Assembly: GCA_902385255.1 (NCBI GenBank)
Contig: CABMEV010000004.1
Span: 34,590-98,589, forward strand
Direction of reading: 5' to 3'
Source of the DNA: Candidatus Tiddalikarchaeum anstoanum
GTDB lineage: Archaea > Nanobdellota > Nanobdellia > Tiddalikarchaeales > Tiddalikarchaeaceae
Length of the DNA: 64,000 bases
Shown in pieces: positions 7,145 to 41,290 of this stretch. Positions within the stretch are counted from its first letter, which is position 1; each line of letters opens with the position of its first letter. The translations under genes and the position numbers were made by a program. Below the pieces are notes generated by a model, which saw nothing but the letters and a program-made list of their open reading frames with translations, was not told the DNA's origin and did not search any database.

Positions 7145-7371
7145 TAAAAAAATATAAAACCCGTTTCTGATTATATATCTTTTGTAGAATATGATGTTTC
7201 TGGGCAATTATTCAGGTTTTTTAGTTCATAAAAAATATATTTATTTACAATATGGTAAATAAATATGTGTTGTTGAAAAACGCATCCAGCGGCTCTAATT
7301 TCTTAATATTTTGGGGCACGGTCAGATTTATATCTCTTTCATAACTCTAATCTTAGTATAGACTTAATGAG

Positions 7372-27263: not shown

Positions 27264-28057
27264 TCATCCGCAAGCCAATAGCTTGAGTCGCACTGCATCA
27301 CTGCATGAATTACATTGCTAAACAGATTATAAACCATCGAATATAAGCGCGCCTTCTTCCTCGAAGCATTCAGCGAATTAATCAAGTCTTCATCTTTAAC
27401 CTTGTTAGTATAAGCATTAAGCACCCTGGCAGTTATGCACAGCGTATTAAAATCCACATCCAAGGAATGCATTGAGTGTCCGCACACGTCAAAACCAATA
27501 ATATTATTATTCTTAGCAAGGAACCTGATTGAATTTAGCAGTGATTCAAGATTCATTTTTCCAGTATTCCACTCACCCATTTCAAGGCTTAATTTCGTAT
27601 TTAGAACATCCAGATCAACAGACACGTAGACAGGCTGGCGTGATGCAACTAAAACATATCCAGCCTCGTCGGGGCTTAATACTGTCAATGCAGGAACATC
27701 TATTACTGTGCTGTCAGGACCAACGATTAAAACGTTGCAATCCGGGTGTTTCTTAATGGTTGAATAAATCCAGTTCCCGCAGGTCATGAACTTGTCAGGC
27801 TTGTAATGAAAATGCGTATCCATAGACTTAACCACTTCATCCTCAGTATAGTCAATATGAGCATCATAAACAAGCAAAGTAAAATTATCAACAGGTTCGA
27901 TGGAGTCTATGATTTTGTCAGTAAGGTAATGGTTTTTCCCGCTGCCCAAGTAATAAGGCTGTTTTGCTTCACTAACATTGTCAATAACGTCTAAATTAAG
28001 TAATTCTTCATGCATTTTGAGCGAAATCCTGTCATTTCTAAGCAGGTTTAAATCCAT
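27260..28057 (-). CDS. arginase/agmatinase-family (ureohydrolase) protein, divergent
   Basis: DAHID, SVDLDVL and GFDVCGH blocks correspond to the DAHxD, SxDxDxxDP and GxDVVEV motifs of the arginase family. The first GGDHS block is degenerate (GKNHY). Confidence 0.5.
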   Translation of the reverse strand: MDLNLLRNDRISLKMHEELLNLDVIDNVSEAKQPYYLGSGKNHYLTDKIIDSIEPVDNFTLLVYDAHIDYTEDEVVKSMDTHFHYKPDKFMTCGNWIYSTIKKHPDCNVLIVGPDSTVIDVPALTVLSPDEAGYVLVASRQPVYVSVDLDVLNTKLSLEMGEWNTGKMNLESLLNSIRFLAKNNNIIGFDVCGHSMHSLDVDFNTLCITARVLNAYTNKVKDEDLINSLNASRKKARLYSMVYNLFSNVIHAVMQCDSSYWLADD

Positions 28058-28109
28058 AGACTCCTAGATTAATATTTCTAATTTAAAAGTTTTACCTAAC
28101 AAGATATTT

Positions 28110-28910
28110 TTAGAGTCCTAATTTTCTCTTAAGCCATTGGAAGAACGACTTGTCATCCTTGTCCTCTATGAATAATTCCTCTCCAGCTATCTTATTCACT
28201 ATCTGCTTTATTATCTTGGCGCTCTTGCTTTTCGGGTATGAGAAAATCACAGGCCTTTTTTCGCTGACACTCTTCATAACGTAGATATCATAAGGGACTA
28301 CTCCTAGTATTGGAAGCTCAAGGAATTCTGCAATATTCTTCTCATCAAGGTCGAATTCAAGGCCGGTTTTTTTGTTAATTATGACTCCAAGAAGCGCCAC
28401 CCTGTCTTCTTCAGCTATTTTTTTAGCGCGAAGAGCATCGGTTAATGCAGGAAGTTCAGGATTAGTAACCAGCACTAACTCATCAGCAGCTCTCACTGCC
28501 AGCTCTGCTTCCTTTCCGAGTCCTGCGCTTGAATCAACAATTATGTAATCATACTTTCCTAACAAGTCAAGAAGGGATTTGCTTAATTGTTTCCTAATCT
28601 GGGTCTTTAAATGATGGAAGCTTAACCCTCCAGGTATTACCTTTAATCCTTCCTTGGTTTTGTAAATAGCAGATTCTATGCCTACTGCGCCGCTTAACAC
28701 GTCATGGAGTGTGGGTCCTTTATCAGTTATGCCAAGCAGTATGCTGAGATTAGGTGTTGTGACATTAGCATCTATTATTAGAACGTTCTTTCCTGCCTGG
28801 TGAAGCGCTGCGGCAACATTGCAGGACATGGTGCTTTTTCCAACGCCCCCTTTACCGCTTGCGAATACTATAACACGAGTCATATTTTCAATTAATTCTA
28901 ATAACTGCAC
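28110..28910 (-). CDS. MinD/ParA-family P-loop ATPase
   Basis: It carries the deviant Walker A SGKGGVGKST. Confidence 0.8.
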   Translation of the reverse strand: MQLLELIENMTRVIVFASGKGGVGKSTMSCNVAAALHQAGKNVLIIDANVTTPNLSILLGITDKGPTLHDVLSGAVGIESAIYKTKEGLKVIPGGLSFHHLKTQIRKQLSKSLLDLLGKYDYIIVDSSAGLGKEAELAVRAADELVLVTNPELPALTDALRAKKIAEEDRVALLGVIINKKTGLEFDLDEKNIAEFLELPILGVVPYDIYVMKSVSEKRPVIFSYPKSKSAKIIKQIVNKIAGEELFIEDKDDKSFFQWLKRKLGL

Positions 28911-28949
28911 TTTTTAAATATTTTACATATCAGCCTAAAAAACAGGGAA

Positions 28950-29411
28950 TTATTGATACTTTGAGAACAGCTTCAGGCTGGAGTCTTCATCCTTGACAGA
29001 GCCTTCGAATATTAACACCTTGTATTTCTGGTTGAATTCTTCAAGCGTTTTGGAAACCTCGGCCAGCATGTTTGATGCCTGTGCATCATTAGTGATGTTG
29101 GTGACATGTCTTAACCTTACAGCCGTATCCTCGCCGATGTAAGCATACATGTTGACTACGAAGTAAGATTTGGAGTCGAACGTCACCTTTTTCGAGTTGA
29201 ACATTACGAACCTGACAATTTTATTCTCAAGAAGGGCTGTTATTGTTGAAACAGCGTTGCAGTCGAATATCATTATATAGTCTATTATATCTATTGTTTT
29301 TAAGATTACCGGAAATGTTATGGTCAGCGTTATTAAAAAATGAAGCCTTAATATGCAGTTATGAAACTTACAATGGCTGAGCGCAAACTGATGACTGAAC
29401 GGCTGAAGCAA
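28950..29411 (-). CDS. possible Roadblock/LC7 (MglB-like) domain protein; the real start is probably at internal M47 (29273)
   Basis: The C-terminal 105 aa show a roadblock-like pattern (NDAQASNMLAEVSKTLEEFNQKYKVLIFEGSVKD). The N-terminal 46 codons look non-coding. Confidence 0.35.
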   Translation of the reverse strand: MLQPFSHQFALSHCKFHNCILRLHFLITLTITFPVILKTIDIIDYIMIFDCNAVSTITALLENKIVRFVMFNSKKVTFDSKSYFVVNMYAYIGEDTAVRLRHVTNITNDAQASNMLAEVSKTLEEFNQKYKVLIFEGSVKDEDSSLKLFSKYQ

Positions 29412-29524
29412 TTAAGAACGTATGCCGTAAGATGTTTAAAAAATAAAAAAATGGATGAATACCTTAATACTTTAAACTCGAGAGAGTTGAAATTATTAGA
29501 GGACACCCTTATAGTTCAAAATCC

Positions 29525-29809
29525 TTATTTCTTGTGTTCTTCGCAGGTTTTGCATGAATCACATGACTGACTGCAGTTTTCTTTATTGCCCATTTGTGAT
29601 TTTATCTGTTTTTCTAATTGCATTAATATGTCAACAAGCACTTGATAAACTATTACTGCATTCTCCTCTTTCTGGATGACTTCAACAACGGAGTTGAATA
29701 ATTTCTTGTATCTTTCTTCAAGAACTTTCATGTCAGGCTGTTTTGGTGCTTCTTCCTTCTTTGCTTCCTTTTTCTCTTCTTTTTTAACTTCTTTCTGCTC
29801 TTTTGCCAT
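29525..29809 (-). CDS. small K/E-rich protein with a C-terminal Cys cluster
   Basis: The N-terminus reads MAKEQKEVKKEEKKEAKKEE. The C-terminus carries CSQSCDSCKTC. Confidence 0.35.
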   Translation of the reverse strand: MAKEQKEVKKEEKKEAKKEEAPKQPDMKVLEERYKKLFNSVVEVIQKEENAVIVYQVLVDILMQLEKQIKSQMGNKENCSQSCDSCKTCEEHKK

Positions 29810-29851
29810 AACTTCCCACTAACCTTTTTTTATTTTAAAAAGCTTTGTAAT

Positions 29852-30322
29852 TTAGGGATTGTTTTTCCTGAATTCTTTAAGTTTATTTATGAATTCGTTA
29901 TCCTTCTTTTTTTCTTCAGCCACTAAGTCCAAATAGCCGCTTTTAATCAGAGTCGTCTTGACTTCAGTAGCCGGCATATTTTTAGGGAAGTAGATTTCCA
30001 GTCTGAACTTGTACGTTTTTGGTGGAGGATTCCAATAAGAATACATCATGCACGGGTCGCGCTCAACATTGGTGTCTATGACTACGCATTGAGCAATGGT
30101 AGTGCCGTAATTTGTAGACTTTGTTGCTGCATCATCTTTTTTTTCAAACTCGCAATGCTTAATCAAATTATTAATTATTGATTCAAAACGAGAGTCACTC
30201 TTGCTGCAATAATCTTTGCCGTCTGCGAAGAAAAAAGAGCCTTTTTCATTATTTAAAAAAGAAAAACCAGTCTCCCTCAAAAACAGGATTAAATCCTTGA
30301 CTGTTAATTCATTAAAACTCAT
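29852..30322 (-). CDS. hypothetical protein
   Basis: An ORF with no recognisable motif. Confidence 0.4.
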   Translation of the reverse strand: MSFNELTVKDLILFLRETGFSFLNNEKGSFFFADGKDYCSKSDSRFESIINNLIKHCEFEKKDDAATKSTNYGTTIAQCVVIDTNVERDPCMMYSYWNPPPKTYKFRLEIYFPKNMPATEVKTTLIKSGYLDLVAEEKKKDNEFINKLKEFRKNNP

Positions 30323-30370
30323 AAAAGTCTGGAAATCTTACTTAGTTTATTAAACTAACTAAAAAAAGTA

Positions 30371-30444
30371 TGGGATGGGGGGGATTTGAACCCCCGGCCT
30401 CACGGGCTTCAGCCGTGCGCTCTCCCAGGCTGGGCTACCGTCCC
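30371..30444 (-). tRNA. tRNA-Phe (anticodon GAA), with two C-A mispairs
   Basis: Hand-folded as a 74-nt cloverleaf. The anticodon arm is CACGG-CUGAAGC-CCGUG and the T arm is GGGGG-UUCAAAU-CCCCC. The acceptor stem GGGACGG/CCAUCCC has C5-A68, and the D stem GCCC/GAGC has C12-A23. Confidence 0.7.
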
Positions 30445-30514
30445 ATTAGGAATAATAAAAGAATAAGAATAATAGTGTATTATAAATCTTATCCCCTAAT
30501 AAAAAAATAATAAG

Positions 30515-30955
30515 TTATAGAGTTGTGAACTCATTCTTATTGCTGATTAATATGCTGAAGAATATATCCGCATCCAAATCGTTTAAGCCTGCGCGTTTTA
30601 AGTAAAACCTTGCCTGTTCAGTGCCAAGGAAGAATAACTGGGTTAAATCCTTTCCCGGAGTGTCAATATAATCGCGAGCAATCATCTTAGTGGCCTGAAG
30701 CTGTAAGTCAATAGGTATTCCGCTATCCCTGCATAAGTACTTAACAAGCCTGGCAAAATTAGCGCTCTTTCTTGAGATTCCTTTCTTCTTCTTTCCTTTT
30801 CCCCTTAAAACCAGGACAACAACAACTCCGATAACAATCATTAAGATAAAAAGCACAACTCCGACGATGATAACAGTCAAATCACCCTCGTTCTGAGAAA
30901 ATCCTGCACTGAAACTCAATAACAACAATAAATACAATAAAAACAACTTATCCAT
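30515..30955 (-). CDS. membrane protein with N-terminal signal/TM, unknown function
   Basis: A hydrophobic N-terminus plus a second TM helix. Confidence 0.4.
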   Translation of the reverse strand: MDKLFLLYLLLLLSFSAGFSQNEGDLTVIIVGVVLFILMIVIGVVVVLVLRGKGKKKKGISRKSANFARLVKYLCRDSGIPIDLQLQATKMIARDYIDTPGKDLTQLFFLGTEQARFYLKRAGLNDLDADIFFSILISNKNEFTTL

Positions 30956-31016
30956 GGATAAAACAGAGTTTACAATCGAATAAAAATATTTACTTTTACT
31001 CCAAAAAATTGTTTCC

Positions 31017-32963
31017 TTACCTCATAGTGAACCATCCACGGTTAACCGTGCAGGAAATAACACCCTTATCCTCAAGATTTGCCAGTAAAGTGTTAAACTT
31101 GGCTCTTGACATCTTGCTTGGAAGCTTTGCGAATAAAATATTCGATTTCACAGCCTTCTTTTCGCTAAAAGCCTTAACCTTTGACAAAGCCTTCAAAATA
31201 ACCTCTTCATCACCGGTTAAATTATACTCTAAAGGTTCGCTTTTTATGAAAGAGCAGAACTTTCTATAAACAGCATCGTAATCATTGGATGAGACGAGTT
31301 TTGAAAACTCCTCATTCTGCTTCAATGAAGACTCAGGAGATAACAATGAAATATTACCCTTCTTTGCACCCCTAAGCACGGCCTCCTTAATCCTTATACG
31401 GAGATTAATATTATCCAATAATTTCTTAACCGAGACGCCCTTTGTGTAAGCTATCTTGTTAAGGAGTGGTGAAACGCCAAGTTTTGAAATATTATACTTA
31501 TTGGTTGAAGAGTCAAATATTACAAGGTCTGAAAATCCATTCTCGCCTGCAGGATTATTAATCCAATTCTTACCCACCTCAGTTATACGAACAAGCTTCC
31601 TGGTATTCTCCGTCTTATCGCCTAATTCAAGGTTTGAACAACTAACAACTATATCACAAGCCTTGAAACTGGTTGGAGGAACACCTAAGTCATTAACAAC
31701 CCTGTCGAACGTGTCAAAAGCAGTGTTCCCATGGATAGTTCCGAGCACGGAACTACCTGCGGCACCAACACGCATAGCCTCAAACAAAGTCTTTGCTTCA
31801 GTTCCCCTCACTTCCCCTATAATAAGCGCGCTATCACCAAGCCTTAATGCAGTCCTAAGAACAGTCTCAGGTGATAGTTCGAATGATTCACTCCCTTCGA
31901 AACTGACAGTCTTCAAATGTTCAAGATTAAAACCCAAGTTCCTAAGATGGTTGACAGGAAGTTCCGGAGTATCCTCTATGACAATCAGCCTCAAATTGTA
32001 AGGCAGTTCGAACATTAATGAACCAAGAAGGCTCGTCTTCCCGCTCCCCCTGGGGCCTGTTATTATAATAGAAACCCGGTTATCTATGAGGAACCAAAGT
32101 AGTCCTGCAACGCTGGCTGACAAGAACCCATCATACAGCATGCGGTTAAGAGTCAGGGGAATAGTGGTATGTTTTCTGATTGCGAAGCCGGTACCGTTGA
32201 ATGACAATGGCTGGCTCACACCACATATACGCGCATTCACAGTTCCGATGTTGCTGTGAATGACTGGGAACGCTTCATCAAAAGGCCTGCCGCTGTTAAT
32301 CCTGAGAAATGTGCCAATCTTATTCACCATTTCATTCTTAAGATAGACATTAGTTGCAAGATTGCCCTTACTGGAATGGTTGACAAAAAGACGGCTGTTG
32401 CCCGGACTGTTAATGAATATATCCTGAACGTTATCATCAGAGAGGAACTCTTCAACAATACCAAGACCGGAAGTATATCTTATGACAAGGGGAACTAAGA
32501 ATAACTTATCCTTCGGCAATAACTTCTCAATATTATCCTTTTCAATCTCTTCATTCTGAACCTTTTCAACAACAGAATTCAAGAGTTCCAAGTCCTCGTA
32601 ATTTAACATGTACTCCTTAGGATTAACGAGCATTAAAGGCGAACCTTCAATATCCTTGAAGGTGAAAGTTCCGGTACTTTCATTAGCAGCCTTGTTTGGA
32701 ACCAGGTAGAATTTTATGAAAGAAGGAACTGTAACAGGTTCGAACACGTGAAAATTATCATGCAATAACGAGGAGCTAAGGCCTTTCTCATAATAAACCT
32801 TTGAATACTTCTTAACTAGTTCCAATAAATCAAAGGATAGATTAAGGCTGTTTACGCACTCGATGCATTTTGGGTTCTCAAGAGAAGCTATCGAGACGCA
32901 GTTATTGCAGTTAATCTCTAACGCATTAAATCCTATAAAACCCCTAAGATTAAACTCAACCAT
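31017..32963 (-). CDS. type II/IV secretion-system ATPase (FlaI/VirB11/GspE family) with an N-terminal Cys cluster and a C-terminal extension
   Basis: Walker A (TGPRGSGKTS) and the Asp-box/His-box region (LIVIEDTPEL...IIGEVRGTEA) are present. Cys clusters CNNC...C..C sit near the N-terminus, and about 130 extra aa follow the ATPase core. Confidence 0.8.
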   Translation of the reverse strand: MVEFNLRGFIGFNALEINCNNCVSIASLENPKCIECVNSLNLSFDLLELVKKYSKVYYEKGLSSSLLHDNFHVFEPVTVPSFIKFYLVPNKAANESTGTFTFKDIEGSPLMLVNPKEYMLNYEDLELLNSVVEKVQNEEIEKDNIEKLLPKDKLFLVPLVIRYTSGLGIVEEFLSDDNVQDIFINSPGNSRLFVNHSSKGNLATNVYLKNEMVNKIGTFLRINSGRPFDEAFPVIHSNIGTVNARICGVSQPLSFNGTGFAIRKHTTIPLTLNRMLYDGFLSASVAGLLWFLIDNRVSIIITGPRGSGKTSLLGSLMFELPYNLRLIVIEDTPELPVNHLRNLGFNLEHLKTVSFEGSESFELSPETVLRTALRLGDSALIIGEVRGTEAKTLFEAMRVGAAGSSVLGTIHGNTAFDTFDRVVNDLGVPPTSFKACDIVVSCSNLELGDKTENTRKLVRITEVGKNWINNPAGENGFSDLVIFDSSTNKYNISKLGVSPLLNKIAYTKGVSVKKLLDNINLRIRIKEAVLRGAKKGNISLLSPESSLKQNEEFSKLVSSNDYDAVYRKFCSFIKSEPLEYNLTGDEEVILKALSKVKAFSEKKAVKSNILFAKLPSKMSRAKFNTLLANLEDKGVISCTVNRGWFTMR

Positions 32964-33017
32964 GATTATTTGAAAACATTATAACTTATAAAAACATTAA
33001 CTACCACTAATAAGTAG

Positions 33018-33638
33018 ATGAAAAAAGCGCAGTTCGTAAGCCCTATAATAATTCTTGCAATAATAATTGTATCAACATACATCATATTAAACCAGCGAAT
33101 AATAAACGAAGCGGCAACCGATACGATAATAGGTATTAACCCGATAATAAACAACCTTGAAAATATTACAGTGCAGGACTTAAATTTTCAAAACAATATT
33201 ACGAAAAGAATAATACAATTAGCGAGTACGACAAACAGTTCCGAAACAATCACATCAATCATAAGACAAGAGTATGGAAGTAGCTTAACATTCAGCAATG
33301 AAATAATAATTAATTATGCACGAACGTATTATATCGGGAACAATAGTAAGTTAATTAATAATACAATAATAGTTCCGTACCCGTATAACCAATTCCTAAG
33401 GGAGGAATCAAGATTATTAAACAGTTTGGCAGCGTTTGGAACATGCATCGGAACTGACTGCACTAACTTCAACACTTGTGTTAACAACTATGACTCGCTG
33501 CCGACAGACTGGGTTCCGGTCTCATGCGAGATAGGTCCGCCAATAATGGTGAGAATAGAACTAATAAACCAGGAATACCCATTAACATACAACTACACAT
33601 ACCACACGTTCAATAATAACCCAATAAAGATAGGTTAG
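33018..33638 (+). CDS. putative pilin-like secreted protein (class III-like signal peptide), Asn/Ile/Thr-rich
   Basis: The N-terminus MKKAQFVSPIIILAIIIVSTYIIL has a basic residue followed by a hydrophobic stretch, like archaeal prepilins. It is transcribed divergently from the ATPase gene. Confidence 0.35.
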   Translation: MKKAQFVSPIIILAIIIVSTYIILNQRIINEAATDTIIGINPIINNLENITVQDLNFQNNITKRIIQLASTTNSSETITSIIRQEYGSSLTFSNEIIINYARTYYIGNNSKLINNTIIVPYPYNQFLREESRLLNSLAAFGTCIGTDCTNFNTCVNNYDSLPTDWVPVSCEIGPPIMVRIELINQEYPLTYNYTYHTFNNNPIKIG

Positions 33639-33718
33639 AGTTCCGGAACTAAACGCTAAAAATACCCCTATTTTGAGGAAAATTTTAAAAGATAACAGGA
33701 ATAATTAGAATATATAAT

Positions 33719-34366
33719 ATGGGTTTCTTAAAAAAGATATTAGGAATAGAGAACTTGGAAAAGAAAACAGAAGACGAGTTAGACCAGGTTAAGAAGAACA
33801 TGAAAACAAGCTGGAGCTGGGTTAATTACCTGCACGAGTTAGAACAGGATAACAGGTCCAGGATAAAGAAGCTCGAAGATGAAAATTCTGAACTAAAAGA
33901 ATTATTCAAAGCAGAGATTGAACGACTTTCAAACATCCAAGTCTCACAAAATACCGGCATTAAAGTGCAGGAAAAACACATCAAACTGAATGAAGACAAG
34001 GAGAAAAGCAAAACAGTTCCGGAACAAGAAGAGGAAGATGAAGATGACGAGAAAGAGGAACTATTAGACAAGAAAGGCCTCCCCCTCAAGGAATTGGATA
34101 TACAGGGGATTGGGAAGAAAGAAGCTTATCTCCTTCAAATATTATACCAGATGGCGTGCTTTGACGGTTCCTCAAGCCTCGAGACTGGCAAGATATTTGA
34201 ACACTTGCCTTATCAGATAACAGTTAGAGGGCTTAGGAAGAAACTATACAAACTGCAGCAGCAGGGCATAATTAAATCAGTAATGTATGGGAACACAAGG
34301 AAATGGTACCTTGATATGGAGAAACTTGCAAAACTCAAGCAGTTCCTCACTGAAAGGGCAGTATAA
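33719..34366 (+). CDS. acidic coiled-coil protein with a C-terminal winged-helix-like segment
   Basis: An E/K/D-rich central region is followed by a C-terminal GIIKSVMYGNTRKWYL wHTH-like pattern. Confidence 0.4.
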   Translation: MGFLKKILGIENLEKKTEDELDQVKKNMKTSWSWVNYLHELEQDNRSRIKKLEDENSELKELFKAEIERLSNIQVSQNTGIKVQEKHIKLNEDKEKSKTVPEQEEEDEDDEKEELLDKKGLPLKELDIQGIGKKEAYLLQILYQMACFDGSSSLETGKIFEHLPYQITVRGLRKKLYKLQQQGIIKSVMYGNTRKWYLDMEKLAKLKQFLTERAV

Positions 34367-34445
34367 CAAGGATGGGAACAGAAGGGAACCATGGTTTCCT
34401 ATGGGAACTTCGGAACGGAACAAGACCGGAACTAATCTTTAAGGC

Positions 34446-34871
34446 TTATTTTAACACTTTATCTAAATGTTCTATTGTTGATTTCTTAAATCCGGAACTT
34501 TGAAACAATCTCAATACATCGCCCTTCGAAAACGACTTAGTGAGCAGCTTGGCCAAGCGCAAGTTGCTCTTGTTAACATAATCATCCCTGAAAGGAATAA
34601 CTTCCTGAATCCTTTTGAATAATAGAAAAAGCACACTCCTTGTTGTAATAATCGAGATGAAAGCAAGGAAGAAGTACAGAAATAACTGGACAAACAAGTT
34701 ATTATTAACAACTATATTCAAAAGGATGACATTCATTATCACGATGAACATCACTAATTCCAATATGACTTCAAAAATAGTCCTGTTTGTTCCAAAAACC
34801 AAGGAGCATAAAGCCTCGCCGAGAAAGACGCCAAGAATCAACACCAAGCTTGAAACAATTTCAACAATCAT
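34446..34871 (-). CDS. membrane protein
   Basis: Three or four TM helices. The gene overlaps the downstream gene by ATGA. Confidence 0.35.
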   Translation of the reverse strand: MIVEIVSSLVLILGVFLGEALCSLVFGTNRTIFEVILELVMFIVIMNVILLNIVVNNNLFVQLFLYFFLAFISIITTRSVLFLLFKRIQEVIPFRDDYVNKSNLRLAKLLTKSFSKGDVLRLFQSSGFKKSTIEHLDKVLK

Positions 34872-35638
34872 TTTATCCTGTCAACCTTAATACCTACTTC
34901 ACCTGACCAGGATATAATCTTATCCCTCATATCTTTCTTTGAGCCCTTCCAGTCAATTAATACCAGCTTAGGTCTTGGAACTGTCTTATTAATCATTTCA
35001 TTAAAGATTTCCCTGGTAAGGTAGGTGAAAGCGTATTCGGGGCAGATATGGCCAATTGCTAAACTATTATCACTCACTAATTTGCGTGTGAAATTCGGGG
35101 CATAATGAGGCCCTCCAAAACCAATGCATACTATTTTTTCCTCAGCCATTATCTTTTCATAATCATTTACCATGTTGAGAACTAAGGACGCCACATGGGA
35201 ACAGGTACTATTATCATTCCATTGTTCCTCGGAACTTCCAACTTCCACAAATAAACTTGGAGTGTTAATACTTGGGCCGTGATGAGTCACTTCAAGAGTT
35301 ATCTCAAAACCCATACTATTGTCATTATTTAACTTGCAGAGGCGTCTAAGGCACTCAGACTGGATTTTAGCATTTGAAACACTCAGAGTTCCCATAGTTC
35401 CGCCGAACTTGGCAGGTCCGAAATTGCCAGGAGTATGGCAGGACAAGGATTTCACGCCTTTCTCGCTCTGATGCTTTGAGAGGAACAAATCAAGTTCCGC
35501 ATCACTGAACTGTTCCGCATAGTCAAGATTGGAATCGCATGAGATTATCCTAAAACGCGTTTTATCCGCATATTTCTCAATATATTTTCGCATATTAACA
35601 CTTGCAGCGTCAGAAGTTGAACTTACAAGGTTAATCAT
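34868..35638 (-). CDS. D-aminoacyl-tRNA deacylase, archaeal type (DtdA-like)
   Basis: The EVTHHGP and GFGGPHYAP blocks and the N-terminal VSSTSDAASVNM are recalled as DtdA (PF04414) signatures. Confidence 0.5.
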   Translation of the reverse strand: MINLVSSTSDAASVNMRKYIEKYADKTRFRIISCDSNLDYAEQFSDAELDLFLSKHQSEKGVKSLSCHTPGNFGPAKFGGTMGTLSVSNAKIQSECLRRLCKLNNDNSMGFEITLEVTHHGPSINTPSLFVEVGSSEEQWNDNSTCSHVASLVLNMVNDYEKIMAEEKIVCIGFGGPHYAPNFTRKLVSDNSLAIGHICPEYAFTYLTREIFNEMINKTVPRPKLVLIDWKGSKKDMRDKIISWSGEVGIKVDRIK

Positions 35639-35656
35639 AGAATAGTTTTTAAATAG

Positions 35657-36163
35657 GTGTTTAATAAAACTTTCTTAGATAAGCAAAAGGAGGTTTTTGC
35701 ATTGCCAGTAATTGCTAATAATATCGGTGAAGTACGAATAAAAATTGACACAAAAGAGTCTGGAAAACTAACAGGCGTTCGAAACAATATGTTAATCAAG
35801 AACGTCGAAGAGAAAAAATTAGGCGACAAGAAAGGATTAATCCTCACAGTTGATTTATTAACCACTTACGTTAAAGAGGATGACAAACCGCTCTCACAAT
35901 TCTTAGTTGAGGAAGAAATGCTATACGCAGGAGAGGAAAAGGAAGTTAAGGAGATACTGGATGAGTGGACTAAGGACAAGAAGATACCTAAAAAGTTCGA
36001 AGACTCACTTATACAAGGATTAAACACTATCTGCATGTATGATATGCAGTTCTTCACTAACAGGATGAGATTCCCGCCATGCACAGGCTATAGCGTATCA
36101 ATAAACGCAGGCGAGGAAGAGAAAAAGAAAGACGAGAAGAAAGAAGACAAGAAAAAGAAATAA
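35657..36163 (+). CDS. hypothetical protein with a K/E/D-rich C-terminal tail
   Basis: It ends in AGEEEKKKDEKKEDKKKK. The tail resembles that of the 13994 ORF. Confidence 0.45.
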   Translation: MFNKTFLDKQKEVFALPVIANNIGEVRIKIDTKESGKLTGVRNNMLIKNVEEKKLGDKKGLILTVDLLTTYVKEDDKPLSQFLVEEEMLYAGEEKEVKEILDEWTKDKKIPKKFEDSLIQGLNTICMYDMQFFTNRMRFPPCTGYSVSINAGEEEKKKDEKKEDKKKK

Positions 36164-36194
36164 AAAGCTGAATTCTAGCCTTTAATTTTTAATT

Positions 36195-37085
36195 TTATTG
36201 CATTTCATTATTTTCTTCATTGTATAACTGGTCACGCTTAGCTTCTAACTGGTGTATTGGAACGCCTGCGTACTCGGCTCCGGTAAGGAACCTTTTACCC
36301 TTCTTTTTGGCCAAAGCAATGAACTGGCTGTAGAACTTCATGTAATCCTTATCCCTCAATATATAGTGGTCATAGATAATATCTTTCACCTTACACTTTT
36401 GAATAATCTGAATCAGGTTAGCCTTGACCAATTCAAGATGAGCTTCCATTATGTCATAACCCACCATGTGAGTAGGAGGCCCGCACATTATCAAAACATC
36501 CGGATTCTCACTTATGATATAATCCGCATTCTCCTTTAAAATAGGCCCCATGACGTCCCCGGCGAATAATAGCTTGGTCTTCCCTGATGTTATTGTTGCC
36601 ATGATTAAGTATCCGAAGCTGCTTCTCTCAACACCATGCCATAATGGCTCGCTGAATTTAATCTTGACATCGTCAAACTCGAAGCTGTTCCCGTCTATGA
36701 AGTGAAACTCCTTGCAGACGCGCTTAACGCTCATCTCAAACTCTTTTCCTTCGCTCCTCTGGTTGAAATTGAGCTTGGTCTTCCTGTTCTTGCATAATAT
36801 GATCTTGTCAGTATACACATCTTCGAATATCTCATCATTGCTTGGTATGTAATGGTCCAGGTGGTAATGAGTGATTATGATTATATCACTCCTTTTTGCA
36901 AAGTCAAGTATCTTATTCTTGAAAACGTTGAAAGTGTTTAATTCTATATTAGTCGGAGGAAGGCCCAATCTCCTGGTTGCCAGGGCGATACCAGGGTCTA
37001 TCAGAATATTATGCTTGTCTGTCTGCACAAAGGTGCACATGCTACGAACACCCATACTGTCAAAAGCAACCGGAATAATCTCCAC
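36195..37085 (-). CDS. metallo-beta-lactamase-fold hydrolase
   Basis: It carries the ITHYHLDHY (HxHxDH) motif. Confidence 0.7.
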   Translation of the reverse strand: MEIIPVAFDSMGVRSMCTFVQTDKHNILIDPGIALATRRLGLPPTNIELNTFNVFKNKILDFAKRSDIIIITHYHLDHYIPSNDEIFEDVYTDKIILCKNRKTKLNFNQRSEGKEFEMSVKRVCKEFHFIDGNSFEFDDVKIKFSEPLWHGVERSSFGYLIMATITSGKTKLLFAGDVMGPILKENADYIISENPDVLIMCGPPTHMVGYDIMEAHLELVKANLIQIIQKCKVKDIIYDHYILRDKDYMKFYSQFIALAKKKGKRFLTGAEYAGVPIHQLEAKRDQLYNEENNEMQ

Positions 37086-37158
37086 GCATAATTTACATAA
37101 AGAGATTTTATTAATCTTATCCTAAAAAAGAGTTGAAAGTGTTGGGATTTTAAGCCAA

Positions 37159-38281
37159 CTCACTTTTGAAAAAAAACATTCATTTTTCTGGCTGAAACAC
37201 CATACCCCTCTCCTTCATCTTCACATTTTGAAAATGTGTTGGATGTGTTGGAGTAATTTTAGTCTTCGCCACCACATTTTGGGTAAAAACTCACTATTTT
37301 TTCGAAACCCTCACTTTTGAAAAAAAAGCCTGCTATAATAGTAGTTTTTCCTATAATCACTCACTTTGTTTAATATATGGGTAATATCCATCGGATTAGT
37401 CATACTATTTATCACAAGATCTGCATTACTCACTTTTATGCTTTTGAACACGTCTTCTATGGTTCCCTCACTTTTAGAAAAAAGCTGCCTATTATGTATG
37501 CCTAAAACCGAATAAAACATGTCTGTAATGGTAAAAAGCAGGAATCCAGCCCTAAGAGGCCACATTGAGCCGAATCTGTCGAAATTACTCTTACTTTTGA
37601 TTGTTTCATTATGCCCAAGGTAGTATTTCCATAAAGTATTATCCCCATCGCACACTACAATATCATAACACTCACTTTTGATAAAATTGGCCAATTCTTT
37701 CAAATTTCGGAGAGTAAAATCAGCACTTTTGTGAGTATTCCCGTATCTATTGACTAGAATCTTATCCACCCTCACTTTTGAATTATGGTGCTTGTTTTCG
37801 AGCGCTTTTTCAAGGTTATAGGCTAGTTTTAAGTCAAGAAAGTCATCACCTATAACACCTATGCGAACAGGCCCAGAATTTGATTTTAACGCATATTGGA
37901 AGGATTTAAACAATCCTCCATATTGGTAGAATAGTTCTATTAATGCAGCTGGGTTTGGCTTTAAACCGTGTCTAATCCAGTGATAAGCGCTCACAATGCC
38001 TATATTTATGCTGTTTGCCTGTAATTCCCTCTCACTTTGAACCTGGGGAGCTGATAAGATCATTAATTATCTGGTAAAAGTATTATAGATTTAAATCTTA
38101 CCTTAAACCCTCACTTTTGGGAAAACAGGCTGTTTTTATGCCTTTTTAGCCCTATTTTAGCCTTTTTTATCACTTTTTACTATTTTAGGATCTTGCAGGA
38201 CTTATATTCACTCAAGTTATAGATTGCCAATTGATATATAGTGATAATCTATCTATCACTCACTTTGGGATAAATAAGCTA
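37159..38281. repeat. Dispersed array of at least 12 copies of CTCACTTT(T)G; four exact copies of the 12-mer CCCTCACTTTTG are followed by A/G-rich runs
   Basis: Copies lie at about 37159, 37222 (variant), 37308, 37360, 37429, 37465, 37671, 37769, 38031, 38108 and 38259. Some extend to CTCACTTTTGRRAAAA(A)GCTG..TTATG units. An inverted copy CAAAGTGAGGG lies at 40144. Confidence 0.7.
37311..38063 (-). CDS. hypothetical ORF whose frame contains five of the CTCACTTTTG repeats (each encoding a KSE/QSE tripeptide); its coding status is doubtful
   Basis: A 250-aa ORF, which is long for an AT-rich genome. The same repeat continues into both flanking non-coding regions. Confidence 0.3.
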   Translation of the reverse strand: MILSAPQVQSERELQANSINIGIVSAYHWIRHGLKPNPAALIELFYQYGGLFKSFQYALKSNSGPVRIGVIGDDFLDLKLAYNLEKALENKHHNSKVRVDKILVNRYGNTHKSADFTLRNLKELANFIKSECYDIVVCDGDNTLWKYYLGHNETIKSKSNFDRFGSMWPLRAGFLLFTITDMFYSVLGIHNRQLFSKSEGTIEDVFKSIKVSNADLVINSMTNPMDITHILNKVSDYRKNYYYSRLFFQK

Positions 38282-38392
38282 TTTTTAGCTGCTTTTATGT
38301 ATTTTTTTGATTCTTCAATCAATATTTTAGGTTAATTTTTATCCTATCTACCTATATATCGAGTTAATCTAGAAAAAATTATAAATATTTGA

Positions 38393-38470
38393 CGTGTTGA
38401 CTAATGTGTTTAATATGTTGTCGAAAGTGTTGGATGTGTTGGACTTGTTGTTGAATGTGTTGTGGTGGTT
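38393..38470 (+). repeat. Iteron-like array of about 7 units of (A)TGTGTTGGA with roughly 9-12 bp period, just upstream of the 38501 gene
   Basis: The sequence reads gacgtgttgactaatgtgtttaatatgttgtcgaaagtgttggatgtgttggacttgttgttgaatgtgttgtggtgg. Related copies lie at 37234..37253 and 7265..7275. Confidence 0.6.
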
Positions 38471-38500
38471 CTAATGGGCATTTTAGATATAATTTACAAT

Positions 38501-39085
38501 ATGGTAAATAAATCCAAGCAAAAAAAGGCCAAAAAACCAAAACAAAAGCACGAAAAACATGCTGCCAATAATGGAAAAACAGGGCAGGTGCAGGAAACCA
38601 AGCAGAAATTGGAGCAAAAGATAATAGTCAAGGATTTGTCAGATACTGAAAAACTGCTGAAAGCGTGGGATTCAAGCGTCAAGAACGTTTCAGACCATCC
38701 ATTATCACAGGTTAAAATCATTAATACGCAGATATTGGAGCAGTTAACTGATATACTCACTTCTATGAACTCAAAATTAGACCGCCTGGATGTGTTAGAA
38801 GAGATTTTGAGGCTACTTAAGGATTCCAGGGCTGAAATCAGGGTTGTTGGTGGAAGTACTGAGAAATTGGATGCTGCTATCTCTAAAATTGAGGGTTTGA
38901 CTATCAAGGATGAAGAGTTTATCCGCGTCTTGAAGGATAAGGGGCCTCAAAGTGCTGATTCCATAAGCCGTTTGGTTGGCATTTCAAGGAGCACAGCTTC
39001 AAGCAGATTGAATAAATTGGAGAAGTTTAAGCTTGTTAAGAAGAATGCTGACGGCAAAGATATTTATTATTCATTGAACCAATAA
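38501..39085 (+). CDS. basic N-tail protein with a C-terminal winged-helix DNA-binding domain (regulator or Rep-like)
   Basis: The C-terminus reads SISRLVGISRSTASSRLNKLEKFKLVKK..DIYYSL (HTH plus wing). The start was placed at the MVNK ATG embedded in the 22-bp box with a TATA-like TTTAGATATAA just upstream; the ORF track starts at 38462. Confidence 0.5.
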   Translation: MVNKSKQKKAKKPKQKHEKHAANNGKTGQVQETKQKLEQKIIVKDLSDTEKLLKAWDSSVKNVSDHPLSQVKIINTQILEQLTDILTSMNSKLDRLDVLEEILRLLKDSRAEIRVVGGSTEKLDAAISKIEGLTIKDEEFIRVLKDKGPQSADSISRLVGISRSTASSRLNKLEKFKLVKKNADGKDIYYSLNQ

Positions 39086-39622
39086 AAAATATTATCAAAG
39101 GTTTTAATAATTTATCAAAAGTTTTATCGTGCTGTTTTTTCAGTATTTTTTATCGTTTTTTTGATTTTTTTCTAATTTTCTATATTCCATCTCGTTTACA
39201 AAATTTGGATTGACTTTTTTTAGTTCGGTAAGATGATAGTTTCTTTCTTTTTCCATGTCGTCTTTTATATTTCTTAATATGTCTGATAAGCTGATTAGTC
39301 CGTTTCTTACGAAATCATTTTTCATTACTATTATGGATTTCATTACTTCTTTATAGGTTTTTAGCGCCTTTTTTAGCTGCCTAAATAGGGCTCGGAATAT
39401 ACCCTCCAGGCGAAAGTTTTAGGCCTAAAATGCGTTAAAATGACCCCGTTGTTTCCTATGGATATATCGGCTTTCTATACATAGAATTTGGCCGGATTTC
39501 ATTATGTCTTCCTCCAGTAATCTGTATGACAAGCTCCCTATATCTTTTATAGAATAGTAGTTAGGGAACCACTTTCGTAAACCTTATATGTCGCTCTCCA
39601 CTTATAGAAAACTGGTATATTT

Positions 39623-39970
39623 ATGAAAAACGTGATGTTTTTGGTATTCGGAAACCACCCCAAAGCTAACAGCATAAAAGAGCGTGCTCTGGTGATTATT
39701 AAGTTCCTGAAAGGCAAGGACTGGGTGGACTTAAACGACATACAAAAAGAGCTTAACATAGACAGGAACGAAAGCCCCAGCATGTTCTATAAACCTCTTA
39801 GTGCGATGAAGCGCTGGAAGCTGCTTGACAGTAAGCGCCAGGTTACAGGCGGCCGAGGAGTGCACGTTATCTACACGACTTATTACAAGTTTACCCCAGA
39901 CCATTTTCTTACATATTTGAAAGACACTTTGTACGCAGTGTGCGATACAGAGCTTAAAATGTTCAAATAA
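39623..39970 (+). CDS. small winged-helix (MarR/PadR-like) DNA-binding protein
   Basis: The stretch LVIIKFLKGKDWVDLNDIQKELNIDRNESPSMFYKPLSAMKRWKLLDSKRQVTGGRGVHVIY reads as helix-turn-helix plus a beta-wing. Confidence 0.5.
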   Translation: MKNVMFLVFGNHPKANSIKERALVIIKFLKGKDWVDLNDIQKELNIDRNESPSMFYKPLSAMKRWKLLDSKRQVTGGRGVHVIYTTYYKFTPDHFLTYLKDTLYAVCDTELKMFK

Positions 39971-40978
39971 TTTAATATTAATTTACCATATTGTAATTAT
40001 GTGGGTGCCCATATAGTCAAAAAACATTGCATACTTTTTAATACATTATTACCATATAGTAAATAAATTGAGATTACACCTCGAAAAATTCCACTATCTG
40101 CCGAAAACTAAAAACTGAGTGAGACATCAAATTTAAGAGAATGCAAAGTGAGGGATAATTATAAATTTTATTAATGTGATTTATAATATTTATTAATTAA
40201 TAATTATGTAATATAATATGGTCTTTTATAATAACAAAGAAATAATAACTAATGAACATGATCTTGCATATTTAAAATATTTTGATTGGTTTTTATCACT
40301 TAGCTCAGATAAGTTAAAGAATTTAAATGTTTTATTTAAAAAATCGTAAAATTGATTTGTATATAAAAGCAAATAAAATTATAAAAAGTCCAGACCTTAT
40401 TTCAAAATCTCAGATACAAGATATTAAATCCAAACGAATTACAAATAAAAAAAGATGAAGTAAATATAATTTTAATGGGCGGAGAATCTAATATTGATTC
40501 ATTAGATGATATGTCAGATTTTTAGATCATGGGGTTGTCATAAGAGAGCCTGCGACGAATTAATAAACTGGTTTTATGAAGAATCCAATCTTAAAAAAAT
40601 GACCATTATAGTCCCTTTTGACACTATTTTCAGTACGTATAATGCTAATTTGAATACTCCAAAATATAAAGAATATTTCTTAAACGTATATAATTCTAAA
40701 AAAACTTCATTCAAAATAAATCAAGACCAAGCAATAACTGTTTTGTCTAAAATAGTTATTTAAAATTTTTCAAAGATAACAAGTCCCAAAAAAAATAAAT
40801 TAATCAAACAATAATATTTTAAGCAATTAATACTAAACTAAGTTTCAGGAACTCTAGATTTAATACTTATTTTGTTAGGTATAACTTATATTTTGGCTAA
40901 AATTTCAATTAAAAGCCTTTTTAACAGACGCATGCCTTGTTAAAAATAATAATATTAATAATAGGGGGTGCAAAAAGA

Positions 40979-41146
40979 ATGCTAGTTGTAAGAAAAGCAG
41001 CAAAAGAAGCTGGAAAGAAGTACGAAATGAGATTCCCAGACGAGACTATTGATGCTCTTGACAAGTATTTAGATGAAAAAATAAAGAAAGCCGCAGACAG
41101 AGCTAAAAAGAACGGAAGAAGTACTTTAAGAGAATATGACTTCTAA
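40979..41146 (+). CDS. small histone-fold protein (archaeal-histone-like, alpha3-truncated)
   Basis: The 55-aa sequence aligns by eye to HMfB alpha1-L1-alpha2-L2 (RKAAKEAG..FPDETIDALDKYLDEKIKKAADRAKKNGRSTLREYDF against RIIKDAGAE..VSDDARITLAKILEEMGRDIASEAIKLARHAGRKTIKAEDIE). A Shine-Dalgarno-like AGGGGGTG lies 8 nt upstream of this ATG, whereas the ORF-track start at 40937 lacks one. Confidence 0.4.
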   Translation: MLVVRKAAKEAGKKYEMRFPDETIDALDKYLDEKIKKAADRAKKNGRSTLREYDF

Positions 41147-41290
41147 AAGCTAAAAAAAATCATTTTTCAAACTTTTTTTTTAATGTTTCTAATTTTTATG
41201 ATTTAAGGCAAAAGATAAACGCCTATAAAAAAAAGTACTTCTAAAAAATACTTAAAATAACAACACGCATCTCCTAAAGACTATACAAAA

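Follow-up and report, generated by a model that had tools for sequence, protein, structure and literature searches.

The tubC locus is invariably found upstream of tubR. Its repeats fall into separate blocks, in which two different iterons may occur, cover the promoter and serve both repression and segregation, spanning 130 to over 350 bp of a spacer of about 500 bp (PMC6009700). StbA of plasmid R388 binds 9-bp direct repeats (stbDR), and AspA spreads along DNA and has no dispersed array. In Pyrococcus, a TTCC...GAA core is perfectly conserved in the repeats of both origin recognition boxes (ORBs) and mini-ORBs (PMC1904270). The locus compared with these systems here belongs to Candidatus Tiddalikarchaeum anstoanum, a 1.16-Mb DPANN archaeon represented by LFW-252_1, a metagenome-assembled genome (MAG; PMC8561730). 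Within a 64-kb stretch of its contig CABMEV010000004.1 (positions 34,590 to 98,589; hereafter the window, in whose own numbering all positions are given), short boxes of a single orientation (A boxes) run through a gene for a 250-residue protein and through both of its flanks, and a second, tandem array (B boxes) separates them from a divergent gene for a winged helix-turn-helix (wHTH) protein. To our knowledge, no replication origin or chromosome-segregation site of a DPANN archaeon has been mapped experimentally, and a literature search found none. What is new at this locus is a deeply conserved two-box array that is tied to an uncharacterised wHTH family of DPANN archaea, and also the imprint that its DNA word has left, in two reading frames, on a protein encoded across it.

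The A-box array is real, strongly non-random and strictly polar. The window contains 12 copies of the core CTCACTTT, where 2.6 +/- 1.6 would be expected and none of 100 shuffles reached 12, and ten of these are + strand copies within 37159-38266 (binomial P ~1.5e-19 for ten of 12 exact copies in these 1.1 kb on one strand), with no inverted copy inside the array. On the + strand, 11 of the 12 window copies of TCACTTT fall inside 37100-38300, an interval whose - strand holds none. A position weight matrix (PWM) trained only on the boxes of other genomes, and read at a cut-off of at least 12 bits, placed eight of its nine + strand matches in the same interval and none there on the - strand. In the window the boxes follow the consensus (C/A)(C/T)CTCACTTT(T) with an A-rich tail, and the consensus of 33 boxes, like that of 76 boxes, is CCCTCACTTT(T). 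The core measures 9-10 bp and the spacing is irregular, from 38 to 260 bp. In total, more than fifteen A boxes and about eight B units cover three promoters.

An earlier note on this DNA, which had described a repeat cluster running through an open reading frame (ORF) and both flanks and had proposed k-mer counting as a check on its enrichment, is borne out by these counts. The close variants that it mentioned are present as degenerate boxes, and its inverted copy at 40144 is real (Table 1). The exact 12-mer CCCTCACTTTTG, reported there four times, occurs only three times (37308, 37769 and 38108), the copy at 37465 having a final A, and the longer unit said to be shared by several copies comes down mainly to the A-rich tail after the core, together with one 35-nt pair at 80% identity. 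Outside the array, the sole + strand PWM match of at least 12 bits is a single strong A-like box (CCCCTCACTTCCCC, 31803-31816, 16.4 bits) within a T2SSE ATPase gene.

Conservation of the boxes was followed in related loci, which are cited by L numbers where they have to be told apart. Eleven of these loci carry a CTCACTT(T) box on the strand opposite an ORF, inside the ORF as well as in both flanks, with ORFs that are 25-50% identical to that of the window, and often no other 7- or 8-mer of the contig is as frequent as CTCACTT(T). When placed on the protein alignment the boxes occupy fixed positions. One lies 54-71 nt 5' of the start codon in eight of the 11 array loci (in the other three the upstream sequence is absent or the start is called differently), and within the ORF there follow an N-terminal xSE box at alignment column 27 in six loci, a K-V-R/S box at column 118 in all ten loci aligned there, an xSE box at column 169 in six loci and a K-S-E box at column 254 in seven, with further recurring boxes at the stop codon and at about +65. 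Extra boxes specific to single lineages also occur and show that there is turnover.

The boxes constrain the DNA and are not a by-product of protein coding. Synonymous-codon shuffling led to an expectation of 9.9 boxes in the 11 ORFs against the 45 observed, with an excess in every one of the 11 loci (each P <= 0.035) and, in the ORF of the window, seven boxes against 1.9 expected; this test is conservative, since the shuffles retain an already biased codon pool. The 8-mer AAAGTGAG encodes K-V-R in one frame and (K)-S-E in another (frames 0 and 1), so the common factor is a DNA word and not a peptide. The intragenic copies of the window, all of which the earlier note had translated as K/Q-S-E, comprise three that give xSE in frame, three that give KVR/KVS in the other frame and one that straddles the stop codon; intergenic DNA holds about half of all boxes. 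Conserved protein motifs do stand at the repeats, a circumstance that the earlier note would have held against a DNA-level site: K96 and V97 are near-invariant, xSE occurs at three aligned positions and conserved residues stand at four of the box positions. At the level of codons, however, the evidence turns the causality round, as the DNA box appears to impose the KVR and xSE residues and not the other way round. The array has imprinted its DNA word on the overlapping protein in two reading frames.

Array and ORF also occur separately. The Parvarchaeota MAG locus L006, in which the gene neighbourhood is different, encodes an orthologue of the ORF that has neither the array nor KVR and KSE; it was the one match in a scan of genome contigs for relatives, and a scan of metagenome contigs only re-found a known contig. 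An apparent enrichment of AATCACT in L006 is due to a leucine-rich-repeat gene. Conversely, L019 has eight A boxes in one orientation in a 716-bp non-coding spacer of 55% T, followed by the B array and the wHTH gene, with no homologue of the ORF, and L017 has two A boxes and ~260 bp of B boxes with no ORF homologue adjoining the wHTH gene. The constant partner of the A boxes is therefore the wHTH gene.

The wHTH protein is 203 residues long and is 62-65% identical in loci where the embedded ORF is only 25-45% identical; in L017 it is ~35-43% identical and in L019 ~35-41%. The family comprises 66 clusters, whose named sources are all Nanoarchaeia or Nanoarchaeota. The protein is predicted to start with an amphipathic helix (MGILDIIYNMV), to continue through a disordered linker rich in Lys to a helix of 48 residues, and to end in a single C-terminal winged helix, for which the predicted local distance difference test (pLDDT) score of the model exceeds 90. 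Eight of the ten positions of the recognition helix (S171-R-S-T-A-S-x-R-L-N180) are invariant at overall identities down to 35%, and of the variable positions 175 is A in at least 90% of sequences and 177 is S or F. A fold search with the wHTH model returned generic ArsR, MarR and AspA-type matches only.

A B-box array, with units such as GTGTTGAC, TGTCGAA and GTGTTGGAT in the window and GTGTTGGAT, TGTTGAC and TGTCGAA across the family, lies upstream of every wHTH orthologue examined, including those of L017 and L019. In all eight loci with a wHTH start, the B boxes fill the interval between a conserved TATA box and the ATG and the A boxes extend 0.7-1.4 kb further upstream. The conserved module thus consists, in order, of A boxes, an AT-rich segment with the TATA box, B boxes and the wHTH gene, with a coding gene placed within the A array in Tiddalikarchaeum-like lineages. 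A relationship of A and B boxes beyond the AAAGTG that they share was considered and set aside as too weak.

The reading that we favour, with confidence that is about evenly balanced, is that the A boxes are DNA binding sites whose likeliest binder is the wHTH protein, and that together with the B boxes they form a two-iteron array acting as an operator and perhaps as a chromosomal handle. An invariant asymmetric box beside a gene with an invariant recognition helix makes the wHTH protein the most economical candidate, and this role, like all that concerns function, is inferred; what the sequences do show is the array itself, with its orientation and conservation, the constraint on the DNA and the linkage to the wHTH gene. 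The A boxes would be DNA-level sites for a sequence-specific protein, most probably the strongly conserved product of the divergent gene at 38474-39085, and would make up with the B boxes a two-iteron array of 0.7-1.4 kb on which this protein could assemble an extended, polar nucleoprotein complex. Such a complex would span the promoters of the wHTH gene, of the embedded 250-aa gene and of a neighbouring metallo-beta-lactamase (MBL)-fold gene, and would thereby act at least as an operator; the presence of more than fifteen A boxes and about eight B units on three promoters suggests an extended complex of this kind more than an ordinary operator. If the analogy with TubR/tubC and StbA/stbS applies, the array might in addition be a handle on the chromosome, either a centromere-like or an anchoring site. 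In Tiddalikarchaeum-like lineages the boxes also constrain the codons of the embedded gene and appear to impose KVR and K-S-E.

Several points weigh against this reading. The protein that binds the boxes could be another one. Regulators of the MarR/ArsR wHTH type usually bind palindromes as dimers, and the A box has no symmetry and no regular spacing. Fewer than 15 sites would do for a simple autoregulator, and since the A and B sequences differ, a single binder for both is an assumption. There is no partition nucleoside triphosphatase (NTPase) gene adjacent to the array, the nearest ParA/MinD-type gene being 9.5 kb off in the syntenic block, and the uniqueness of the array refers to the 64-kb window.

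A bolder proposal, which we regard as possible though doubtful, is that array and wHTH protein would be the centromere-like anchor or the replication origin of a whole clade of DPANN archaea (Nanoarchaeia-type), set by a non-Orc winged-helix protein instead of Orc1/Cdc6 or SegAB. The amphipathic helix could then fasten the locus to a MinD/ParA-type ATPase or to the membrane, and the great age of the site would have allowed its boxes to become part of the amino-acid sequence of the gene inside it.

The ORF at 37311-38063 on the - strand, which is annotated as 'Uncharacterised protein' of Candidatus Tiddalikarchaeum anstoanum, is a genuine gene; against the doubt expressed in the earlier note stand its homologues, its conserved synteny and a fold that is modelled with confidence. 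Among 1.84 billion representative proteins, a profile search found only 19 relatives, of which ~14 are full length, making this a tiny family restricted to DPANN archaea, with the invariant residues G33, K35, P36, G72, D77, D139 and D141. Its AlphaFold model (pLDDT 85.9) has a Rossmann-like alpha/beta fold. Foldseek found no match to this model in the PDB at E <= 0.001, and the ORF has no credible Pfam match and no visible DNA-binding fold. A haloacid dehalogenase (HAD)-like assignment, prompted by DxDxT and GDxxxD motifs, received no support from structure comparison and was dropped. The boxes of this gene comprise that on the stop codon at 37310 and, inside the ORF, six exact and two degenerate ones.

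Upstream of the embedded gene, the TATA-like element GATTTAAATC at 38088-38097 (about -25 to -34 from the ATG) is directly preceded by the A box at 38108-38119 (about -45 to -57), and in most loci an A box stands in this place next to the TATA element. The promoter region of the MBL-fold gene (37086-37170) likewise contains an A box, at 37159, and one B box. L001, L010 and L015 have in common a gene order that runs from a ParA/MinD gene by way of a T2SSE ATPase gene to those for a D-aminoacyl-tRNA deacylase, the MBL-fold hydrolase, the embedded ORF and the divergent wHTH protein. The features of the locus are listed in Table 1.

Table 1. Features of the two-box locus and its surroundings, in window coordinates.
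Feature	Position	Strand	Remarks
A-box array	37159..38266	+	Ten exact CTCACTTT plus degenerate boxes, single orientation
Exact A boxes CTCACTTT	37159, 37310, 37360, 37429, 37467, 37671, 37771, 38031, 38110, 38259	+	
Degenerate A boxes	37222, 37273, 37289, 37588, 37724, 38171		
Inverted A box	40144..40155	-	CAAAGTGAGGG on the + strand; only inverted one near the locus
wHTH gene, candidate box binder	38474..39085	+	Divergent from embedded gene; Pfam HTH_24, TrmB-like matches
B-box tandem array	38388..38470	+	Between TATA box and wHTH start codon; period ~9 bp
TATA box of wHTH gene, AATTATAAATATT	38377-38389		Within AT-rich spacer
AT-rich spacer between A and B arrays	38270..38394	.	Bin 38301-38400 has 21% GC
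Embedded 250-aa gene	37311..38063	-	Homologues, fold model; seven A boxes inside or on stop codon
Promoter region of embedded gene	38080..38119	-	TATA-like GATTTAAATC plus A box
MBL-fold hydrolase gene	36195..37085	-	Downstream of embedded gene; synteny kept in L001, L010, L015
Spacer between embedded gene and start of MBL-fold gene (37085)	37127..37252	+	B-type boxes interleaved with A boxes
B-type boxes in this spacer	AAAGTGTTGGG 37136-37146; GTGTTGGATGTGTTGGA 37236-37252	+	

Several further observations concern the elements around the wHTH gene. The B array can also be read as a small ORF of 26 codons (38394-38473, VLTNVFNMLSKVLDVLDLLLNVLWWF and a stop) that ends in TAATG on the wHTH start codon. 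Its frame and its W-x-F ending before the stop are common to L001 and L015, where gene callers annotate genes of 33-42 aa, and the frame is broken in L017 and L019; the small ORF may encode a leader peptide or merely result from the repeats. Between the promoters of the embedded gene and the wHTH gene, T-tracts are phased at 10-11 bp (38134-38178; TTTTATGCC / TTTTTAGCCC / TATTTTAGCC / TTTTTTATCAC), which suggests intrinsically bent DNA. A 26-bp near-palindrome, ATTTATTTAC(A/C)ATAT(G/T)GTAAATAAAT, occurs four times in the window (7239-7264, 38488-38513, 39977-40002 and 40043-40068). The second of these copies lies within the first 14 codons of the wHTH gene, where the peptide MGxLDIIYNMVNKS is invariant in close relatives, and L017 has a different near-palindrome at the same position; the element could be a second operator or a hairpin in the mRNA. 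A protein of the same build as the wHTH protein, in which an amphipathic MGFLKKILG at the N-terminus goes with a coiled coil and the C-terminal end resembles a winged helix, is encoded at 33719-34366 and adjoins the gene of a divergent T2SSE-family ATPase (31017-32963). A T2SSE gene is also found near the wHTH gene in L010, L015 and L019.

Some A boxes in the spacer between ORF and wHTH gene belong to a longer conserved unit, ATGTCTCACTTTTCGATATATA(N)TG, in L001 (~1380-1400 and 1735-1755), L015 (9236-9262 and 9611-9637) and L011 (~190-210). There are two such units per locus, ~360 bp apart and with a TATA-like element, and the window has only a rearranged version (38228-38266). Many of the metagenome contigs (L004, L005 and L010-L014) are of only 1-2 kb and stop within the array or next to it, which may reflect low coverage or assembly breaks at the repeats. 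The locus is also present on three long contigs, Ga0675942_0000066 (618 kb, within 4,876-25,502), JAQTNH010000001.1 (956 kb, within 218,666-239,382) and Ga0378408_0000062 (233 kb, within 27,875-40,438).

To the right of the wHTH gene, the inverted A box lies at the left edge of a nearly gene-free stretch of 18-24% GC. This side of the locus varies between genomes. The intervals 39971-40505 and 40764-41290 have 18-25% GC and are nearly devoid of genes, and in L015 the corresponding side carries Mrr, a type I restriction-modification system and a UvrD/PD-(D/E)XK gene. Elsewhere in the window, a PIF1-like helicase gene (1377-2714; Pfam PF05970, E = 5e-33) is present in this DPANN archaeon. A scan of the window for promoters and terminators of bacterial type gave matches at chance level; it has no relevance here, as the host is an archaeon.

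Among the alternatives to a wHTH-bound array, the one that survives best, though we consider it unlikely, is a chromosomal replication origin in which the boxes would be bound by Orc1/Cdc6, or by the wHTH protein as a lineage-specific initiator, and the AT-rich spacer at 38270-38394 would be the unwinding element. A winged-helix protein, WhiP, acts as an initiator at oriC3 of Sulfolobus. The polar, asymmetric boxes form one cluster per stretch of DNA examined (12.6-64 kb), phased T-tracts are present, and the non-coding spacers, of 716 bp in L019 and 825 bp in L015, are unusually long for genomes so compact, all of which would accord with an origin. So would the divergence of gene orientation at ~38.2 kb, but this is not seen in L017, and the bin of 21% GC (38301-38400), which is flanked by A and B boxes with their 'AAAGTG' in opposite orientations, is also explained by two divergent promoters. 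There is also a precedent in Pyrococcus, where clusters of mini-ORBs inside the coding gene dp1 are bound by Cdc6 (PMC1904270). The A box, however, has neither the TTCC...GAA core of ORBs nor their dyad, and the GGG on its reverse strand, where ORBs often have a G-string, appears in some copies only. Pfam scans of the large ORFs and a P-loop scan found no orc1/cdc6 gene in the 64-kb window, where the P-loop ORFs are PIF1-like, AAA, MinD/ParA and T2SSE only, and none is recorded within 10 kb in L015 and L017 or within 6 kb in L019. GC skew is negative from 22 to 60 kb save for a brief, weakly positive part at ~38-41 kb and has its extremes at ~22 and ~60 kb; the window thus shows no lasting skew switch at the locus, in a test that is weak on only 64 kb of sequence. 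The earlier note had proposed an array of regulator- or initiator-binding sites in preference to a coding constraint, of which the DNA-level array is supported and the resemblance to archaeal origin boxes is not.

It is very unlikely that the motif works at the level of RNA, whether as AAAGUGAG in an mRNA shared by the embedded gene and the MBL operon or as CUCACUUU in a long leader, or an antisense RNA, that continues into the wHTH gene. The strict single orientation inside a transcription unit would suit such an element, as would the 'AAAGUG...' that boxes of both kinds show in the sense direction of the genes that they precede or overlap. Against it, the embedded gene has a conserved box at about -55, upstream of its TATA element. 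The array strand of L019 is 55% T and contains many runs of T5-T8, and no gene on the opposite strand could make use of the motif there. Runs of T should terminate archaeal RNA polymerase. The only Rfam matches in the window are two tRNAs.

A decayed tandem repeat, as the earlier note had entertained, or the remnant of a mobile element or integration site beside a variable island, has a very small probability. The DNA to the right of the wHTH gene does differ by genome, with defence genes in L015 and small ORFs of low GC in the window, but synteny on the left is stable, terminal repeats are absent, as are genes for a transposase or integrase, and the sequence and positions of the boxes are conserved despite saturated synonymous divergence, even where the ORFs are only 25% identical. 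That the boxes are a side effect of the K-V-R/K-S-E residues, as the four box positions at conserved residues might suggest, or of an internal repeat in the 250-aa protein, has next to no probability in view of the synonymous-codon shuffles, the use of one DNA word in two reading frames, the intergenic half of the boxes, the array without ORF in L019 and L017 and the ORF without boxes in L006.

With the wHTH protein as candidate binder, the locus is a concrete candidate for a chromosome-maintenance or master-regulatory site, in which a defined box of 9 bp and a second, tandem one of 9 bp go together with a small conserved protein whose recognition helix is invariant. The locus is also a natural case of a non-coding DNA code that overrides the choice of codons in an overlapping gene, and even the identity of its residues, one 8-mer being kept in two frames across lineages whose proteins are at 25% identity.

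The locus resembles described systems to different degrees. An operator of the MarR/ArsR type has one or two palindromes at a promoter, whereas here at least ten asymmetric, co-oriented boxes run through a coding gene. The lambda-type origin inside the initiator gene O and the iterons of plasmid Rep systems likewise have co-oriented direct repeats that can sit in, and constrain, coding sequence. Plasmid iterons are 17-22 bp long, have a regular spacing of about two helical turns and adjoin a Rep gene, and RepA-type initiators have two winged helices; the present boxes have a core of 9-10 bp at intervals of 38-260 bp, the wHTH protein has one winged helix, and the embedded gene encodes a Rossmann-like protein with no DNA-binding fold. 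With ORBs and mini-ORBs the locus shares many short asymmetric repeats at a single place, in a cluster that can lie inside a gene as in Pyrococcus dp1, but all A boxes are co-oriented and the core, the dyad and an adjacent orc1/cdc6 gene are absent.

AspA of pNOB8 is likewise an archaeal, ArsR/PadR-like wHTH protein that forms an extended superstructure with DNA, and it is among the fold matches to the wHTH domain (rank 36), although this match is no better than those of dozens of ArsR/MarR regulators. The assembly of AspA begins at one palindrome, and its partners are ParB and ParA.

Closer in layout are the partition systems. As in TubR/tubC, direct repeats lie upstream of the gene of the candidate wHTH binder and overlap its promoter, and they are arranged in blocks with two iterons. 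The differences are that no TubZ or other motor gene adjoins the wHTH gene, that the locus is chromosomal and archaeal, that boxes of 9-10 bp stand 38-260 bp apart over 1.1-1.4 kb and partly inside a coding gene, and that the protein, which has a long coiled coil and an amphipathic helix at its N-terminus, is of ~200 aa, whereas TubR is of ~10 kDa. No motor NTPase gene (ParA, ParM or TubZ) is found in the wHTH operon, where the downstream genes vary by genome and none encodes an NTPase; the claim is therefore limited to a locus that may work like such systems and does not extend to membership. StbA/stbS differs in that the stbDRs are regular (11-bp cycle) and form two sets of five, in being a plasmid system, and in that the HTH of StbA is N-terminal and of another fold. 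It agrees with the present locus in having 9-bp asymmetric direct repeats upstream of the binder's own gene and also in other promoters, and it combines the roles of repressor and of segregation factor with no requirement for a dedicated adjacent NTPase.

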